DNA of 43,522 nt from Promethearchaeota archaeon (lineage in GTDB: Archaea > Asgardarchaeota > Lokiarchaeia > Sigyniarchaeales > SOKP01). Where the stretch lies: NCBI GenBank assembly GCA_048938445.1, contig JBHLME010000022.1:1-43522 (forward strand), in the 5' to 3' direction. The notes beneath the pieces were generated by a model. That model made no database searches. It was not told the DNA's origin and worked only from the letters and a program-made list of their open reading frames with translations. The position numbers were made by a program, and so were the translations under genes. Every line of letters begins with the position of its first letter. Position 1 is the first letter of the stretch. This document shows positions 526 through 19,744 of the stretch, in pieces.

Positions 526-1986
526 TTATATTTTATCAGAATTGTCCCAAAAAACGGGATATTTTTCTTTTTTTAAATTATAAATTCTAGTTCGCATTTT
601 TAGAGCCGAGACCGCTTGAACAGATTCTTTTATACTATGAAATACGGGAATATTCGAGAGTTCCAAAGCTTCAATGATTAAACCATACTTTTTGATATAT
701 GGAATAAAGCATATTATTGGTTTTTTTTCTTGAGAAGTAACATTAGCAATTCTCCTCCCTATTTGAAATGAGATTGAAGGGGTATAGGGAAGAATGAGTA
801 GGATAATGCATTCAATGCGCTCGATTTTTGAAAGATATCGTATAATATTTTCAATATCTTCATCTTGGGCTGAACCCGTGAGATCAATTGGGTCATTAAA
901 TGAAGCTATAGGACGGGCAACTGGATTGACTAACTCTTTCATATCTTTTTGTTCTTTTTCAGTAAATTTTACAGAACTTAATCCATACTTTTTAAGAAGA
1001 TCCGCACATATAACACCATGCCCCCCTGAAATAGAAAGAATTGCTACTTTACCATAAATTACTTTATTATCTCCAAAGGGTTTCAACTTATGACTTAATA
1101 TATCATATAATTTTAAATATGTAAGTAATAAATTTTCTGAACTTGGTTGTATTACTAAATTTTGTTTTAAAGCACCAGCTAACACTTTATTATTCGCAGA
1201 TAAACTAGCAGTATGAGATTTAGTTGCTTCTTTTCCTGCATCTGTAATCCCACCAAAAAAAGCAACCACGAGATCATCTGATTCTCTTGCAACTTTTAAA
1301 AAATCTCTCGCTCTATTATCTTTAAAACCTTCAAGATAGAATGCAATATTTTTTGTTTCTTTATCCTGTTTACTAAAGTATTTTAAAAGCATTGTTTCAT
1401 CAACTACAGCACGATTTCCTATGGAAACAGCTGTTGAGACTCCAATATTAATTTCTTTAAACTTGTGGAAAAATTGATCGACAAGCACACCTCCAGACTG
1501 ACTTATAAGCGCCACGGATCCTTTTGGTGGACGAGTTATTCGTTCTGTAGGCATGAAAATCGTATCCAATAGTGGTGGAGAATATATTCCAATACAATTG
1601 GGACCTAATACAGCAATATCATTATCCAATGAAATTTTTTCTAGCTTTTCTTGGCGTTTAATACCTTCATTTCCTATTTCTGCAAAACCACCACTGATGA
1701 TTATGCAAGCCGGAATGTTTAGATCAGCACATTGACTGACATACTGCAAGGTTGCTTCAGCAGGAATTGCAATAACTAAAAGATCTGGAATTTCTGGTAA
1801 TTCATCTAATCGCTTATATAGTGTTACTCCATCGACTTCACCCCCTTCAGGATGAATACCATACACTTTTACGTTCATTTCAAATTCATTTTTTACAAAA
1901 ACAATTCTGCCCGGACTTGTAGGATTCCTTTTGCTTATCCCTACTACAGCCATCGATTTTGGTTTAAATAACTTTTCTAGATTCAT
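526..1986 (-). CDS. Acyl-CoA synthetase (NDP-forming) alpha-type subunit
   Basis: CoA-binding start LFKPKSMAVVGIS, LGPNCIG, ISQSGG, SIGNR, YLEG and phospho-His motif SHTASL. No ATP-grasp domain. Confidence 0.88.
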   Translation of the reverse strand: MNLEKLFKPKSMAVVGISKRNPTSPGRIVFVKNEFEMNVKVYGIHPEGGEVDGVTLYKRLDELPEIPDLLVIAIPAEATLQYVSQCADLNIPACIIISGGFAEIGNEGIKRQEKLEKISLDNDIAVLGPNCIGIYSPPLLDTIFMPTERITRPPKGSVALISQSGGVLVDQFFHKFKEINIGVSTAVSIGNRAVVDETMLLKYFSKQDKETKNIAFYLEGFKDNRARDFLKVARESDDLVVAFFGGITDAGKEATKSHTASLSANNKVLAGALKQNLVIQPSSENLLLTYLKLYDILSHKLKPFGDNKVIYGKVAILSISGGHGVICADLLKKYGLSSVKFTEKEQKDMKELVNPVARPIASFNDPIDLTGSAQDEDIENIIRYLSKIERIECIILLILPYTPSISFQIGRRIANVTSQEKKPIICFIPYIKKYGLIIEALELSNIPVFHSIKESVQAVSALKMRTRIYNLKKEKYPVFWDNSDKI

Positions 1987-2358: not shown

Positions 2359-3147
2359 TCATGGATATTTCATTAATAAATTTTCAATGAAGTCATCCCA
2401 TTCTTTAAAAGATCTCTTTTTTAACACGGCATTACTACAATCCTCTTCCATTTTAGCCCAGGTTTCAATATATTTATTATGCATTAAAGTTAAACTGGAT
2501 TTAATAAGAAACATGATTGAATCTTTGTATTTAACAAAATCTTTCAAAAATTCTTCAGTTTTGCTATCTAACTCATCAGGAGGGAATACGCGTGTAGGAA
2601 AATTCAAGTTTTTTAAATGCTCTAATCCAAATTTGTCTGAAGTTAATAGAATATTTTTAGCAAAAGTCAAACCAAAATTTCTTAGACACATAAATGTTGC
2701 TAAAGCTCGCGGAAACATGGAAATAGCAATCTCTGGCATCCTAAAATACATTTCTGGAAATGGACGATCAGCAAAAATCCTTAAATCAGAAGCCATAATA
2801 ACCATCATACCATAACCTATTGCAGTACCTTGAACCTGAACAATAATAGGTTTTTTCATAAGGAGCATCTTTTGAGTATTGAGTTTTGTATATTTTAATA
2901 CATCTTTAATATTAACTGATGTCTCGTCCCCTGGTTTAATTTTCATGTCAAAACCTGCGCTAAAAAACTTTTTATCCGTACTTTTTATTAGCAAACATTT
3001 TGCTTTATCATCATTCTCCGCCTCTACAAGTCGTTCGTGAAATCTCTTAAATAGGTCTAAATTAAAAGCATGAACAGGAGGTCGATTTAAAGTGATTCTA
3101 GCTACTTTTCTTTTTATCTCGTATAAAACAATATCATCTTGCGACAT
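2359..3147 (-). CDS. Crotonase-superfamily protein (enoyl-CoA hydratase/isomerase)
   Basis: ITLNRPP-HAFN, FSAGFD, KPIIVQVQG-AIGYG, ASDLRI, MPE. Confidence 0.88.
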   Translation of the reverse strand: MSQDDIVLYEIKRKVARITLNRPPVHAFNLDLFKRFHERLVEAENDDKAKCLLIKSTDKKFFSAGFDMKIKPGDETSVNIKDVLKYTKLNTQKMLLMKKPIIVQVQGTAIGYGMMVIMASDLRIFADRPFPEMYFRMPEIAISMFPRALATFMCLRNFGLTFAKNILLTSDKFGLEHLKNLNFPTRVFPPDELDSKTEEFLKDFVKYKDSIMFLIKSSLTLMHNKYIETWAKMEEDCSNAVLKKRSFKEWDDFIENLLMKYP

Positions 3148-3324: not shown

Positions 3325-4410
3325 TCATTTCTGATTTAAATATTCGTTCATTTCAACGAAAGAACTCGTCCTTATCAAGGCAGCTTTAAGAAATTGGAAT
3401 CCTATATCATATGTAGAACCATCTCCACCTATATGAATGACATAAGGGATATCATTCTTGTATAATCCTTTTGATTTGAGGATTTTTTTTGACGTGGAAA
3501 TGGCATCCGCAATAGTTGCCCCTGATTCGAAGAGGTGGTGAACCCACGGAACTTTCCAAGAAGTGACAAAATCTTTTGATGTGGATACTTCAGAACAACT
3601 CGTATTATTTACATAAACAATGTTTGTTCCTGCTGCAGCAAAAGCACCAGTCGCCAATTGATTAAGTGCCATTCCTGCACCACACCCAGGGCATAAACCA
3701 TGTCCAGGTAATAAATGTTGTTGATGCTCGAGTGATTTTCGGTCGACTTTATAAAAATCTATCGGTTTTTCCGCTCCAAATTTGTCAATTAAGTCTTTTA
3801 TTTTATTATTTCGTTGTTCTGTATAATAAATTATCTCGTCAATGTTTCTTTCTAAGAATTTTGGCTTAAAAAGGTGCCTAAATCGACCCATTGACTTGAG
3901 ATAATCAACAAATTTATCTTTATCAATGTCCAATCCTCGATAATAGCTAAAAATGGGTAGACCATCTTCTACTCTTACCGTATAGAGAGGCCAATAACCG
4001 CAATCAGTCGCTAATTTTGAAATTTTTAGGGCATCCTTCGCTTCATGACGCCAGCCTCTCATACAATCTGAATAGGCTTGAATGAAAGCTGAGCCATTAG
4101 ATTTTAAAGCATCTGCTACTTTTCCTATAAAATCTGCAGGATACGCAGGATTCGTTGTTGCCAAAAACAACTTCTTAGTTCCGTAGAAAGCGAAAGGGGT
4201 CACGAGATCTTGCTTGACACCTATTTTTCCGGGTATTTTTTCACCAGCAGGACCTGTTGTCGTACTCGCGAAAGGAGGAGTCCCTCCTGATTCTTGAATC
4301 CCAGTGTTCATAAACGCTTCATTATCATAATTGAAAAATAATACGTTGCTTTTTTCTTTCCTTTTAAGAATATCTTCAAAATTTATTACATTTCTTTCTG
4401 GTTTGCTCAT
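3325..4410 (-). CDS. porB: 2-oxoacid:ferredoxin oxidoreductase beta subunit, circularly permuted
   Basis: All PorB motifs are present but in swapped order. YDNEAFMNTGIQES/TTTGP/DCMRGW/GRFRHL lie in aa 28-180; PGHGLCPGCG/TSCSEV/WKVPWVH/GGDGSTYDIG lie in aa 235-337. Directly downstream of porA. Confidence 0.92.
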   Translation of the reverse strand: MSKPERNVINFEDILKRKEKSNVLFFNYDNEAFMNTGIQESGGTPPFASTTTGPAGEKIPGKIGVKQDLVTPFAFYGTKKLFLATTNPAYPADFIGKVADALKSNGSAFIQAYSDCMRGWRHEAKDALKISKLATDCGYWPLYTVRVEDGLPIFSYYRGLDIDKDKFVDYLKSMGRFRHLFKPKFLERNIDEIIYYTEQRNNKIKDLIDKFGAEKPIDFYKVDRKSLEHQQHLLPGHGLCPGCGAGMALNQLATGAFAAAGTNIVYVNNTSCSEVSTSKDFVTSWKVPWVHHLFESGATIADAISTSKKILKSKGLYKNDIPYVIHIGGDGSTYDIGFQFLKAALIRTSSFVEMNEYLNQK

Positions 4411-4412
4411 TT

Positions 4413-5636
4413 TTACATTTCCACCTCGTATAATTTATTAGCTGATTCTCTAGCCCCTAGATATGTATATAATTGTCCTTTCATATCTATCGTGTATTTT
4501 ATTTTCTTCTTTGCAATATCCAATTCATCTCTAGTTACATCTCTTCCTCCTAATCCAACAATGAAACTTCGGAACAATGTCCCTAAAGGATATAACGCTG
4601 TAGCTATAGACATTGAAAATGGTGGTAAGAGATTATTGAGTGAATCAGATTTTTCTAAGATAATTAATTTTTCGATGTCATGTTCTTGAACAATTCTTTG
4701 CAGCTCTTCAAAAGGAAATGGCCTATAAGTTCGAATTTTAATTAACCCGATATCTTTATTTTTAGTCATCCAGCTTATAATGTTTCCACACATTGATCCC
4801 ATCGTGATAAAAGCGGTCTTTGAAGAATTATCGAGATTGAAAGTTTCGATTGATTGATATTCTCTTCCTGTCGCATCTTTGAAGCGCTTGTATACGTCAT
4901 CAATCATTCCTAAAACAGGTTTTTTTGCTATATCTAAACCTAATCTCCCCTCCATAAAGAAGTCAGGAGTCACAATTCCACCCCACGTACCAGGATGTTC
5001 AGGATCTATAGTTGGTCTCTTTTTCTTAGGAGTCAACTTTCTTACCGTTTCATCAGGTATTAGTGTCAGTTGTTGGACTGAATGTGAAATGATGAAACCA
5101 TCATGAACAAACATGGTTGGAAATAATGATTCTTCAGAAATCATGACAGACAAGATAGCAGCATCATATGTTTCCTGAACGTTCTCAGAAACTATACAAT
5201 TCCATCCAAAATCAGTCAACACAAATTCCCAAGAATTCCAGATTGATAAATTAGGTGCGTTAAAGGCTCGTGCGGAGATCATCATCGTCAAAGGAAGTCG
5301 CCACCCAACAGCCATCGGTAAGGCTTCTGCCATGAGAAGATATCCTTGAGAAGCGGTTGCCGTAAAAGTTCGAGCTCCAGCAGCACATGCTGCGGTAGAA
5401 TAACTCATCGCTGCAAGTTCTGATTCTACATTTACAAAAGCAGCTTTAAGCCTTCCCTGATGGACTACATCGGATAAGCCTTCAACGGATTGGGTTTGAG
5501 GTGTTATTGGAAAAGCGCAAATGACATCTGGATCCGTTTGTGTTACACCCCCTGCAACAGCATAATTTCCAATCATTGCAGTTTTGATTGGCTTTTTAAT
5601 TTCCTTGAAAAATAATTTCATTGGTTCAATACTCAT
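4413..5636 (-). CDS. porA: 2-oxoacid:ferredoxin oxidoreductase alpha subunit
   Basis: GNYAVA, AFPITPQT, VESE, RTFTATASQG, DGFIISH, YRPFP, GLGGRD. Confidence 0.93.
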   Translation of the reverse strand: MSIEPMKLFFKEIKKPIKTAMIGNYAVAGGVTQTDPDVICAFPITPQTQSVEGLSDVVHQGRLKAAFVNVESELAAMSYSTAACAAGARTFTATASQGYLLMAEALPMAVGWRLPLTMMISARAFNAPNLSIWNSWEFVLTDFGWNCIVSENVQETYDAAILSVMISEESLFPTMFVHDGFIISHSVQQLTLIPDETVRKLTPKKKRPTIDPEHPGTWGGIVTPDFFMEGRLGLDIAKKPVLGMIDDVYKRFKDATGREYQSIETFNLDNSSKTAFITMGSMCGNIISWMTKNKDIGLIKIRTYRPFPFEELQRIVQEHDIEKLIILEKSDSLNNLLPPFSMSIATALYPLGTLFRSFIVGLGGRDVTRDELDIAKKKIKYTIDMKGQLYTYLGARESANKLYEVEM

Positions 5637-5647
5637 CTCTAATCACC

Positions 5648-6640
5648 TCAAGTTTCAGGAACGGCACATGAACCCGGCCCCTGTTTTAATTCTTTACTTA
5701 TCGCATTCACTGGACAGACTTCTAAGCAATTTTGACAGGACTTACAATGAAGCATATCAATTCCTTTCATATGAAATTTACCATCTTCTCCCTTCTCAGT
5801 TATTATCGCAAAATCCGGACAAATAAACCAACATTGAGCACAATCAGTGCATTTTTCTTCGTCCCAAATCATATTCCATTCTCCCCAAGAACCCGTATTA
5901 ACCTGATCGCTTCCAACCTGTATGATTTTATTATCACAATACCATACTCCCGCAGGATCGAGTTCTTTATACCCAGGTAAGCTTAAATTAACTTGATGCC
6001 AAGGGACTTTCGTGTCCTTCGTAAAGTCAATTTCAACACCCGCAGGGTTTTCATAAATGCAAGTCTCTTCAAATGCTCTTTTTATTGCTTTCACATTTTT
6101 TCCGGCAATTTCACCCTTAAAACGCATCATTATTGCATCAGCCAATTGATCAATAGTAAATAGATGAGAGACCCTTATTAACGCACCAAGGATAATGGTG
6201 TTAGTAATGTTTCTTCCTAAGACTTCCATTGCAATATTCGTTGCATCAATTGTCGCAATGTTTAGGTTTTTATTCGCAATCGTCATTCCAATTTCATTTT
6301 GATTCATTGTCGTATTTACGATCAACCACCCACCATCGGGCATTCCATTAGTCACATCAACTTCCGTCAACAAGGACTCATCTAATACTGACACAAAATG
6401 AGGTACGTATACTTGCTCATTAGACCTGACCAAGTCATAATTAGCACTCAAGCGAACATAACTTTCGGTAGGGGATCCCATTCGTTCAGCACCAAATTTA
6501 GGTTGACAAACACCATAACCATCAAAACTTTCAACACATAAATTGCTAGCGGTTACACCTCCTTGCCCGCCTCTTGCGTGAAACCGTAGATTAATGCAAT
6601 TCTCCTTTAAAATTTCTTTTACATGTTTTTCTGTTAACAT
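5648..6640 (-). CDS. porC: 2-oxoacid:ferredoxin oxidoreductase gamma-delta fusion subunit
   Basis: Gamma domain RFHARGGQGGVT, FGAERMGSP, NTIILGA. It is followed by a delta-type NTGSW segment and two 4Fe-4S motifs (CTDCAQCWFICP, CKSCQNCLEVCP). Confidence 0.92.
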   Translation of the reverse strand: MLTEKHVKEILKENCINLRFHARGGQGGVTASNLCVESFDGYGVCQPKFGAERMGSPTESYVRLSANYDLVRSNEQVYVPHFVSVLDESLLTEVDVTNGMPDGGWLIVNTTMNQNEIGMTIANKNLNIATIDATNIAMEVLGRNITNTIILGALIRVSHLFTIDQLADAIMMRFKGEIAGKNVKAIKRAFEETCIYENPAGVEIDFTKDTKVPWHQVNLSLPGYKELDPAGVWYCDNKIIQVGSDQVNTGSWGEWNMIWDEEKCTDCAQCWFICPDFAIITEKGEDGKFHMKGIDMLHCKSCQNCLEVCPVNAISKELKQGPGSCAVPET

Positions 6641-10251: not shown

Positions 10252-11700
10252 ATGCCAACGCAAGAAATGTCCCGTTTGAATATTAAAGATATATCTTTCA
10301 TAAGTCAGATTAAATCAATGGCCGTCATCGGTCCTTCAAAAGGACGAGATTTTATTTTTTTAAGGAGTCATCAAGAGAATTTTAAAGGAGAATTATATGC
10401 GGTCCATCCTACTTTAAAGGAGATACCTGGTTTTGATGATGGTACTCAAGGAAAGATTTATCCATCACTTAAAGACATTCCCAATGATGTTGATTTTGTT
10501 TTTATTGCCGTACCCTCTTCTCAGGTATTAAGTGTAATGAAAGATTGCGTTGATAAAGGCGTCAAGTTAGCCAGTATTTTTACTGCTGAATTTTCAGATT
10601 CAGGTACCGAGGAGGGAGAAGCACTCGAGAAGGAGTTGTTGAAGGTTGCACAAAATAAAGTTCGTATTTTAGGGCCCAATGGGATGGGATTGACTTATCC
10701 ACGTTTAGGAATTGCATGGAGACCAAAATTTCCTACCAATCCTGGAAATCTTTCGTTCATATCTCAATCTGGAGGAATAAGCAACATTGCAGTTTACATG
10801 TCAACACGATTAGGAATCAATTTTTCAAAAGTATTTTCATTTGGTAATGGAAATGATATCGATTTTGTCGATTTATTATATTATCTTAGTAATGATCCTG
10901 AAACGGATATAATATTATGTTATTTAGAAGGCATTAAAAAGAATCGAGGAAAGGATTTAAAGGCAGTCCTCGCACAAAATTCAAAGCCTATTATCATGGT
11001 TAAAGGGGGGGTTTCTAATTCTGGTTCATTCGCTGCTCAAACACATACTGCAGCTATTACTGGGGAGCATCGAATCTGGAAGGCTATTTTTGAGCAATTT
11101 GGTGTGATTGAAGTAGAATCTATAGAGCAAATGATGCATACGGCTAAACTAATTGATTTTCATGGCCTTGTTAAAGTAAAAAATGTAGCAGTTTTTAGTA
11201 TTAGCGGAGGCTATGGTGTAATCCTTGTTGACTTGCTTGAAAAGCATGGAATTAACGTTCCACCCTTTAGTCCACACATTCAAAAAGAAATTGATTCCAG
11301 GTTCTTTGTTCATGGAACAAGTTCAAAAAATCCTTTAGATGTTTCTGCTCAAATTTTTGCAAGTCGAATAATTTATGAAATAATGGATCTCGCTCTCTCG
11401 GATGACAATCTCGATGGATTGGTAATGGACATTCCTCCATGGTATTTTTCTCAAGACTTTCATATAATAAAAAATAAAGGTTTTGAACGACACATGATCA
11501 AAGCATTTTCTTTGGGTAAGAAACACCATAAATTATTAATTCCAATTATTCAAAATGTTAATTGTCCAGAGGATCGAGCTCGAATTGATAAACTATTAAC
11601 GGAAAAAAAGATACCGGTATTTGCTGATCCTTTAGAATTCATTCCTTTACTTCAAAAAATTTCGAAATTAGCAAATTATAGTCAAGAAAGGGTTATCTGA
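10252..11700 (+). CDS. Acyl-CoA synthetase (NDP-forming) alpha-type subunit
   Basis: KSMAVIGPS, RILGPNGMG, ISQSGG, SFGNG, CYLEG, THTAAITG (phospho-His), NPLDV. Confidence 0.88.
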   Translation: MPTQEMSRLNIKDISFISQIKSMAVIGPSKGRDFIFLRSHQENFKGELYAVHPTLKEIPGFDDGTQGKIYPSLKDIPNDVDFVFIAVPSSQVLSVMKDCVDKGVKLASIFTAEFSDSGTEEGEALEKELLKVAQNKVRILGPNGMGLTYPRLGIAWRPKFPTNPGNLSFISQSGGISNIAVYMSTRLGINFSKVFSFGNGNDIDFVDLLYYLSNDPETDIILCYLEGIKKNRGKDLKAVLAQNSKPIIMVKGGVSNSGSFAAQTHTAAITGEHRIWKAIFEQFGVIEVESIEQMMHTAKLIDFHGLVKVKNVAVFSISGGYGVILVDLLEKHGINVPPFSPHIQKEIDSRFFVHGTSSKNPLDVSAQIFASRIIYEIMDLALSDDNLDGLVMDIPPWYFSQDFHIIKNKGFERHMIKAFSLGKKHHKLLIPIIQNVNCPEDRARIDKLLTEKKIPVFADPLEFIPLLQKISKLANYSQERVI

Positions 11701-19003: not shown

Positions 19004-19744
19004 ATGGAATTTGAAACAATAATTTATGAAATTGAAAAGAAGGTCGCCACTATTACGATCAACAGACCCGAAAAACTTAATGCGTTAAATTTCCAATTAC
19101 TTGATGAACTTGATGATGCCTTCAATGAAGCAAAAGAGAATAAAAGCGTAAAGGTTGTAATTCTCAAGGGTAATGGTAAATCATTCTGTTCAGGATACGA
19201 TCTCAATGATAGTCCTTATTTACGAATGCCTGAGGAAGGATGGAATTATGAAAATACTCTATTATTATTACGGAAATTTGAGGAAAAATACATGCGGATT
19301 TGGAATTTTCCAAAACCTACAATTGCTCAGATTCATGGACATGCCCTTGCTGCAGGGTGTTATTTACAACTCCTATGTGATATAAGCGTTGCCGCCGAAG
19401 ATGCCATATTGGGTCATCCTGCAATGAAATGGGGAGGCGTAACAAGCATGCCACTGTGGCAAGTATATTTAGGAGTTAAAAAGGCAAGATACCTTCTTTT
19501 TACAGGTAGGACAATAAGTGGAAAAGAAGCCGAACAGATTGGTTTAGTGAGTTTATCTGTTCCTCTTGACAAGCTTGATGAAACCGTTAATACTATAGCA
19601 TCTGAATTAAAGAGCATTCCACATGAAGGAATATTACATAGCAAGGAAATATTAAACACGGACCTTGAAATAATGGGAACTGGGGCACTTTTTCGTTATC
19701 ATGGACAAAATAATGCTATAGGAAGGCTTCTAAGGTATAAATAA
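19004..19744 (+). CDS. Crotonase-superfamily protein
   Basis: ITINRPEKLNAL, FCSGYDL, PKPTIAQIHGHALAAG. SD GAGGT upstream. Confidence 0.9.
   Translation: MEFETIIYEIEKKVATITINRPEKLNALNFQLLDELDDAFNEAKENKSVKVVILKGNGKSFCSGYDLNDSPYLRMPEEGWNYENTLLLLRKFEEKYMRIWNFPKPTIAQIHGHALAAGCYLQLLCDISVAAEDAILGHPAMKWGGVTSMPLWQVYLGVKKARYLLFTGRTISGKEAEQIGLVSLSVPLDKLDETVNTIASELKSIPHEGILHSKEILNTDLEIMGTGALFRYHGQNNAIGRLLRYK

Follow-up and report, generated by a model that had tools for sequence, protein, structure and literature searches.

A circularly permuted PorB-type beta subunit, cut inside the thiamine diphosphate motif, in a 2-oxoacid:ferredoxin oxidoreductase operon of Lokiarchaeia

The order of the PYR and PP domains differs between families of thiamine diphosphate (ThDP) enzymes, and natural circular permutants are known among lectins, swaposins and DNA methyltransferases. 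To our knowledge, the rearrangements known in ThDP enzymes themselves involve whole domains or subunits only. In the Promethearchaeota, 2-oxoacid:ferredoxin oxidoreductases (OFORs) are held to be central to energy gain, and a route from 2-oxoacid to acyl-CoA to acid plus ATP is described for a cultured member (PMC7015854). The present analysis deals with an open reading frame (ORF) at positions 3325-4410, minus strand, of a 43,522-nt stretch (the window, that is, all the DNA analysed) from a Promethearchaeota archaeon (contig JBHLME010000022.1, assembly GCA_048938445.1), in which the two halves of a PorB-type OFOR beta subunit are found in swapped order.

In the ORF list of the window this gene is a single uninterrupted frame of 361 aa, with the following parts.

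3325..4410, minus strand: permuted OFOR beta subunit (PorB-type), 361 aa plus stop, assigned from the ORF list, the swapped-order matches and family conservation
4357..4410, minus strand: new N-terminal tail, aa 1-18, without canonical counterpart, the alignments to canonical PorB beginning at aa 19-23
3841..4356, minus strand: aa 19-190, canonical C-terminal half (9bt4_C 119-279), from PDB, paralogue and profile alignments
4294-4329, minus strand: YDNEAFMNTGIQ, aa 28-39, within the canonical C-terminal half, which also contains the strand NVLFFNY
4063-4065, minus strand: C116, within the canonical C-terminal half
3721..3840, minus strand: aa 191-230, junction of the old termini, unmatched to 9bt4_C
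3370..3720, minus strand: aa 231-347, canonical N-terminal half (9bt4_C 8-115), from PDB, paralogue and profile alignments
3682-3693, minus strand: C240/C243, in the canonical N-terminal half
3595-3597, minus strand: C272, in the canonical N-terminal half
3418-3426, minus strand: GDG, aa 329-331, in the canonical N-terminal half
3325..3369, minus strand: new C-terminal tail, aa 348-361, and stop codon, of which aa 348-353 alone align, weakly, to canonical 'GHDFL'

A sequence-only reading of the window had already proposed a circular permutation here, and sequence and alignment place the motifs where it had put them: YDNEAFMNTGIQ at aa 28-39, C116, GRFRHL at aa 175-180, C240/C243, C272 and GDG at aa 329-331. 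The W-VPW-H motif and the helix DIGFQFLKAALIR also fall within aa 231-347. The helix FQFLKAALIR (aa 338-347) and the strand NVLFFNYDN (aa 22-30), between which the cut was said to lie, were likewise recovered by both means.

The swapped order was observed against solved structures by a phmmer comparison with all PDB chains. Residues 231-347 of the permuted beta subunit aligned to residues 8-115 of 9bt4_C, the 296-aa beta chain of a pyruvate:ferredoxin oxidoreductase (PFOR), with an independent E-value of 2.8e-17, and residues 23-190 to 119-279 of the same chain with an independent E-value of 7.6e-25. Against the beta chain of oxalate oxidoreductase (5c4i_C), residues 227-347 aligned to 11-127 and residues 22-186 to 130-289. 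With both halves covered, the overall E-values were 3.3e-45 for 9bt4_C and 1.1e-40 for 5c4i_C. The same exchange was seen by BLASTP with a canonical PorB of the same genome (299 aa, contig C172), in which residues 21-209 of the permuted chain matched 122-299 and residues 227-352 matched 9-125. A profile-profile comparison with hhalign, between 42 permuted sequences and 53 canonical representatives (349 columns), aligned permuted residues 19-220 to canonical columns 126-316 with an E-value of 5e-48 and permuted residues 228-353 to columns 11-132 with an E-value of 3e-31. The whole parental sequence is thus present in swapped order with its old termini joined (profile columns 11-132 and 126-316), which is what defines a circular permutant. 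The proposal of a natural permutant with exchanged halves holds, each half aligning to solved chains in reversed order, without overlap and far beyond chance, and the ORF is confirmed as a natural circular permutant of a PorB-type beta subunit, its order having been seen against four independent kinds of reference.

The canonical sequence is nearly complete in the permuted chain, only the loop 'GHD' being found at the break. Canonical residues 116-118 fall there, in the 'RGHD' loop, in agreement with the proposed cut between the helix that follows GDG and the strand that leads into DN. A stretch between the halves had also been correctly noticed, although its proposed length of about 50 aa was wrong: about 40 aa (191-230) are unmatched to the solved chain. 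Within this junction the old C-terminal helix is kept, followed by a short new linker at about aa 210-226 and by old N-terminal residues. Its aa 191-209 align to the C-terminus of the same-genome canonical PorB, and in the profile comparison the alignment with the canonical C-terminal helix extends to about aa 220, leaving about 7-17 residues of truly new linker.

Standard models see this gene incompletely, as had been predicted in the form of two partial hits. NCBIfam PorB (NF008819) matched in two stretches with a total of 205.3 bits against a cut-off of 405, and not as one co-linear stretch. Pfam TPP_enzyme_C (PF02775) reached 21.3 bits, just below its gathering threshold of 21.9, and covered only residues 19-111, corresponding to positions 71-150 of the profile. 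The ESM Atlas feature matches of the sequence were ordinary TPP_enzyme_C clusters.

Residue conservation was measured in 42 aligned permuted sequences of 55-100% identity. The residues N27-Y28-D29-N30-E31, N35-T36-G37 and G329-D330-G331 are invariant in all 42, as are the cysteines C116, C240, C243 and C272, which we take, from knowledge of PFOR structures, to be the [4Fe-4S] ligands; all four cluster cysteines thus remain, as had been claimed. The GDG and DN(E)A parts of the ThDP/Mg motif stand at opposite ends of the chain and not 25-30 residues apart. The frequency of the top residue was 0.79 and 0.81 in the two core halves, 0.66 in the linker, which is free of gaps in all 42 sequences, and 0.56-0.57 in the tails. 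Across 24 ungapped orthologues, the ratio of nonsynonymous to synonymous substitution rates (dN/dS) against the window gene had a whole-gene median of about 0.05, with 0.04-0.06 in the cores, 0.12-0.26 in the tails and junction and about 0.26 in the N-terminal tail, these figures being rough because dS was saturated in 14 of the 24 pairs.

In a deeper subclade of permuted sequences at about 60% identity (P0090-P0107), the C-terminal tail ends in SFDIQNKYCKDNYCE and contains a pair of conserved cysteines, spaced five residues from each other, that the subclade of the window lacks.

Homologues were searched for among 5.8 billion proteins, giving 249 matches, and the best 120 were examined. Of these, 106 were full length (336-368 aa, at least 93% query cover, 56-100% identity) and the remaining 14 were pieces of 245-282 aa; the records originate from NCBI, JGI, ENA and Logan. 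The phylum was further scanned in 400 genomes, with 160 other genomes of the class of the window and 239 outside it. The permuted gene was found in 128 of the 160 class genomes with best E-values of 1e-108 or lower, the matches listed being single full-length stretches of 53-92% identity, and two further class genomes (G243 and G257) held a weak or fragmentary match only. Outside the class, 86 of the 239 genomes gave a match at an E-value of 1e-30 or lower, 85 of them with best E-values of 1e-38 to 1e-31; among the matches listed, these covered the C-terminal half only, in open frames of 309-338 aa. The sole exception is a 2801-nt contig of G075 (L047, G075:C23), most likely mis-binned, whose operon is 70-87% identical to that of the window. 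Accordingly, the suggestion that the permuted order could mark a lineage is borne out at class level: 128 of the 160 class genomes have it, and among the 239 others it is confined to this one suspect contig. The record titles of the holders are mostly Promethearchaeota or Promethearchaeia. Some NCBI records at 80-85% identity are labelled Hodarchaeota, Hermodarchaeota, Thorarchaeota, Odinarchaeota or Nanopelagicaceae bacterium (L082, L053, L087, L095 and others), and these odd labels are probably the result of mis-binning or mislabelling.

Five class genomes assembled as single contigs each hold two co-linear PorB-like genes and one permuted gene by an NF008819 search. In the permuted gene, positions of about 115-297 of the profile are met first and those of about 4-120 afterwards, in one open frame; the canonical paralogues of these genomes also score below the NF008819 cut-off, at 332-378 bits. 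When 1.84 billion representative sequences were searched, the best 150 of 1298 matches comprised 131 canonical proteins, 17 single halves and 2 permuted ones, of which one is a fragment and the other, P0121, bears the label Helarchaeota. The 17 were considered as true split forms and rejected, as they look like fragments or like truncated calls starting at an internal Met of 'GAMERGH'.

The continuity of the sequence across the junction (about 3720-3870) was followed in other data. Eighteen sequencing runs match part of the stretch, none of those listed being an RNA run, and the contigs of X4, X5, X7 and X10 are short. The X5 contig covers 3711-3881 with one difference and the X10 contig covers 3631-3781 with none. 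Three contig 'joints', with sides of 23-39 letters at 90% likeness, were taken together with the uncovered parts as noise from related genes.

The gene quite likely encodes a working OFOR beta subunit with a ThDP site rebuilt from both ends of the chain, as judged from its sequence relatives, and the permuted OFOR is probably active. It corresponds to domain VI, the PP domain with the proximal [4Fe-4S] site, of a three-subunit gamma-delta/alpha/beta OFOR. The chain begins at the strand carrying the Mg/diphosphate ligand Asn of 'YDNEAF' and continues with the canonical C-terminal half; a short linker then leads from the old C-terminal helix to the old N-terminus, and the canonical N-terminal half follows, to end just past the GDG loop and its helix. 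The fold would be that of canonical PorB, with N30 on the first strand and D330 on the last strand-loop-helix lying side by side to form the ThDP-Mg site, while C240, C243, C272 and C116 would hold the cluster. Since the three-residue break is flanked by residues that would remain neighbours if the fold is retained, the new ends would meet at the ThDP-Mg site, and the 40-residue junction should be long enough to bridge the old termini anywhere on a 300-residue domain. The enzyme would oxidise a 2-oxoacid to acyl-CoA, reduce ferredoxin and supply the neighbouring acyl-CoA enzymes. The claim of a functional permutant thus receives indirect support from the invariant catalytic residues, the purifying selection and the conserved operon.

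For the phylogeny, each half was aligned on its own and the two alignments were joined end to end. In a quick tree of 94 rows, all 16 permuted rows formed one clade with an SH-aLRT support of 100, and in a more careful tree of 55 rows all 10 did so with support 100/100, the clade being present in 100% of 200 bootstrap trees. Its stem measures 1.40 substitutions per site in the careful tree. No stable co-linear sister of the permuted clade was found in the two trees, and the canonical PorB of the same genome is distant in both. A single permuted clade on a long stem implies one change, with much divergence before or after it; this single event dates to the base of the class titled Promethearchaeia/Lokiarchaeia or to an earlier point.

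An examination of the co-linear relatives showed that 13 of the 131 canonical representatives carry an insert of 175-546 aa exactly between the two halves. Four of these (P0125, P0133, P0140 and P0171) were scanned, and Intein_splicing and LAGLIDADG domains were found in each. The intein of P0125 lies at ...FTYV|C...N|CYDNEAY, 4-6 residues from the permutation break, and P0140 is interrupted twice, behind GDGA and behind YMN. Co-linear PorB thus has an intein hotspot in its ThDP motif.

The observations above allow the alternatives to be weighed. That canonical porB pieces were misjoined or misbinned in this one contig could be entertained since the assembly is of metagenome type, with 256 contigs and 8% contamination, and no contig of the other runs spans the entire gene. 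The probability of such an artefact is nevertheless vanishingly small: the same order stands in one open frame in 128 of the 160 class genomes, including the five single-contig ones, 106 of the 120 best database proteins are full length and contigs from other studies cross the junction, while an identity going down to 53% excludes a misassembly shared by all. Two of the outcomes that the sequence-only reading had named as adverse, a junction not spanned and an order missing from every other genome, were thus not encountered, with junction-spanning contigs from the runs of other studies on the one hand and the class genomes and database homologues on the other. A more biological alternative is that the gene is a conserved non-catalytic paralogue, a pseudo-enzyme or scaffold without ThDP binding, kept for electron transfer or assembly. 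The long stem (1.40), the sub-threshold scores with curated models, the canonical PorB genes in the same genomes, the loss of the gene from some complete genomes and the physical splitting of the cofactor motif would all suit it, yet none of the ThDP/Mg residues or of the four cluster cysteines varies among the 42 sequences, the strongest constraint falls on both cores (dN/dS 0.04-0.06) and the gene has alpha and gamma-delta partners of its own, in an operon that lacks a canonical beta gene. Consequently, a pseudo-enzyme is considered very unlikely. Several points do weigh against a working permuted enzyme of ordinary function. The rebuilding of the ThDP site is deduced from homology only. Canonical PorB is encoded in the same genome, with two copies in each of the five single-contig class genomes, and the permutant is therefore not the sole OFOR. 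In the phylum scan 30 of the 160 class genomes, several of them 98-100% complete, gave no match, and the gene is therefore dispensable in some lineages. An in-frame stop is present in 6 of the matches listed, from five genomes (TGA in G274, G162 and G273, TAA in G158, TAG in G123 and G273), which could be the result of lineage decay, sequencing error or recoding. Finally, the scores with the PorB, VorB and oxalate-oxidoreductase models are all far below cut-off, so that a substrate cannot be assigned from them, and these low scores together with the long stem make a changed substrate or role possible.

As to the origin of the permutation, the most likely course would be that two copies were fused end to end and the outer parts were then lost. 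This route fits because the old termini are kept and the ends overlap by 5-7 positions in the profile. It has no direct support, however: no tandem or longer permutant was found, only four one-chain PFORs of 28-30% identity (weak evidence), and the C-terminal tail, tried as a decayed relic of the strand and DNEAY, did no better than shuffled sequences (p 0.08-0.93, 40 distinct tails). The inteins point to another possible course, in which the chain was split at the ThDP motif, through an intein or split-intein stage or a homing-endonuclease cut, and its halves were then reordered and re-fused. The 13 of 131 canonical representatives with an insert between the halves, inteins in the four scanned, agree with such a fission, as do the P0125 intein 4-6 residues off the break and the place of intein-bearing PorBs as nearest neighbours in the quick tree, weakly (SH-aLRT 85). 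This sister relation is gone in the careful tree, though, and the three intein sites (after GDGx, TYV and YMN) all differ from the break in the 'RGHD' loop. Moreover, the N-terminal NVLFF corresponds to a canonical strand (compare DVLFI in 5c4i_C) and not to an intein C-terminal block, no Hint or intein family was matched in the permuted beta subunit at an E-value of 1 or lower in Pfam, its tails measure 18 and 14 aa, no permutant with longer ends was found, and the single-half proteins have the look of truncated calls. The link to inteins is thus unsupported, because the sites differ from the break and the sister relation is unstable, and an origin by fission is decidedly improbable. Bolder still, and in our opinion unlikely, would be a permutation that is not neutral, in that, with both chain ends meeting at the ThDP-Mg site on the alpha/beta interface, binding of ThDP/Mg would fasten the N-terminal strand onto the GDG helix at the C-terminus and so gate folding, assembly or activity as a regulatory switch (or the new tails would do so), or, as a second such reading, a break that would be the scar of an intein-related event.

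The genes around the permuted beta gene, all on the minus strand, are the following.

5648..6640, minus strand: gamma-delta fusion of 330 aa, with POR domain III and a ferredoxin domain for two [4Fe-4S] clusters, from domain and NCBIfam matches
4413..5636, minus strand: OFOR alpha subunit (POR_N plus PFOR_II), 407 aa, from domain and NCBIfam matches
2359..3147, minus strand: enoyl-CoA hydratase family gene, downstream of beta past a T-rich gap
526..1986, minus strand: CoA-binding plus succinyl-CoA-ligase-like flavodoxin domains (ADP-forming acyl-CoA synthetase type), from domain matches

The alpha stop codon lies 2 nt before the beta ATG, a Shine-Dalgarno-like GAGGTG stands 11-12 nt upstream of that ATG, and a T-rich tract follows the beta stop. 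The clean frame in an intact gamma-delta/alpha/beta operon that had been claimed is confirmed, the gene order being conserved and the spacing tight. In 10 distant loci, the order gamma-delta/alpha/beta is kept in 8 and alpha adjoins the permuted beta gene in 9; the other two distant loci hold one alpha plus beta only and one beta alone within 6 kb on each side. The beta-alone locus, L038 (G279:C1:1502548-1503603), belongs to a single-contig genome and has no alpha or gamma-delta gene within 6 kb. Alpha adjoins the permuted beta gene in 28 of 29 close loci, the remaining locus being cut. No second beta-like gene was found in the 43,522-nt window. Further neighbours are a thioesterase and a flavoprotein. 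The neighbouring acyl-CoA enzymes fit the route from 2-oxoacid through acyl-CoA to acid plus ATP described for the cultured member (PMC7015854).

Several other loci and copies were observed. In the same genome, a second gamma-delta/alpha/permuted-beta operon (G000:C186:1-2090, L002) of 78-83% protein identity is cut by a contig end; it could be a paralogue or, given the 8% contamination of the bin, come from a second strain. At L046 (G258:C34:1148-3229), a 715-aa frame has alpha 1-317 running into beta 19-361, with a 70-aa beta-like piece downstream; the frame may be an assembly chimera or a true fusion of alpha and beta, in frame and with a deletion. In three related genomes the final 100-165 nt of the permuted gene recur as a decayed second copy (L014:2066-2230, L018:3651-3751 and L025 at about 565-720), sitting 0.7-1.1 kb downstream of the gene, with 76% DNA identity in L014 and L018. 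Between the gene and the decayed copy lies a cassette, consisting of PIN/VapB-like or DUF3368/UPF0175 pairs or of a 204-aa ORF without family, which looks like repeated cassette insertion at the 3' end of the gene. Elsewhere in the window there are second copies of the acyl-CoA-synthetase-type gene (10252-11700, plus strand, 28% identity to that at 526-1986) and of the enoyl-CoA hydratase gene (19004-19744, plus strand), and the same stretch encodes a PAS histidine kinase, an FRG-domain protein, a radical SAM protein and a protein of methyl-accepting chemotaxis protein (MCP) signalling.

Among the best 120 of the 249 homologues, all 25 of those named by NCBI are called 'hypothetical protein', 15 JGI names are OFOR beta, and a precomputed PF02775 match is present in 34 of the 120. 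Since NCBI names the protein as hypothetical, metabolic reconstructions that depend on HMM cut-offs can miss a complete OFOR. The permuted gene is routinely under-annotated and diagnostic for one Asgard class. Its order, a rare genomic change confined to that class, can serve as a marker and as a binning check, and a cofactor motif (GDG-x25-N) that is cut in two and still strongly selected offers a test case for the folding of the ThDP site and for permutation engineering. A specialist in ThDP enzymes or OFORs would be surprised by it; no long-standing question is opened by the finding.

A cut inside the ThDP motif is apparently new. The statement that no example had been described agrees with full-text literature searches of main texts, in which a permuted OFOR or ThDP domain was nowhere described; circular permutation in the literature found concerned other folds. 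The main text of a 2026 review of PFOR diversity contains neither 'permut' nor 'Asgard' nor 'Loki', and the 2020 isolation paper (PMC7015854) has no occurrence of 'permut'.

The closest described systems are the beta subunits of four-subunit OFORs, PorB and VorB (9bt4_C, NF008819, NF008818), with which the permuted beta subunit shares homology in both halves, the same GDG...DN(E)A(Y/F)xNTG residues, the cysteines and the partner genes. It differs from them in its swapped halves, its split cofactor motif, its new tails of 18 and 14 aa and its joined old termini; it also scores at about half the curated cut-offs and forms a separate clade on a long stem. With oxalate oxidoreductase (5c4i) the operon shares a three-subunit make-up with a fused gamma-delta subunit, residues 52-315 of the window gamma-delta protein matching OxalOxreddelta, and the beta chain of that enzyme is the second-best solved match (1.1e-40). 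That chain is co-linear, however, all three window subunits score far below the cut-offs of the oxalate oxidoreductase models (178 against 590, 135 against 500 and 85 against 230 bits) and nothing in the window suggests oxalate as substrate.

The intein-bearing PorBs (P0125, P0133, P0140 and P0171, the P0125 cluster being labelled Altiarchaeales) reach the highest identity among co-linear proteins in the C-terminal half, 46%, and have their chain interrupted in the same short region of the ThDP motif as the permuted beta subunit. In contrast to the latter, their halves stand in canonical order, which is restored by splicing, and the insertion points lie off the permutation break. Other rearrangements of ThDP enzymes and OFORs move whole domains or subunits, which are split or fused, whereas the cut described here falls inside the PP domain and the ThDP motif. 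Other natural permutants likewise keep the full parental sequence with its parts exchanged and a short linker between the old termini; unlike them, the permuted beta subunit has a cut that separates the metal-binding and diphosphate-binding parts of one cofactor motif in a redox enzyme, and this arrangement is fixed across an archaeal class.

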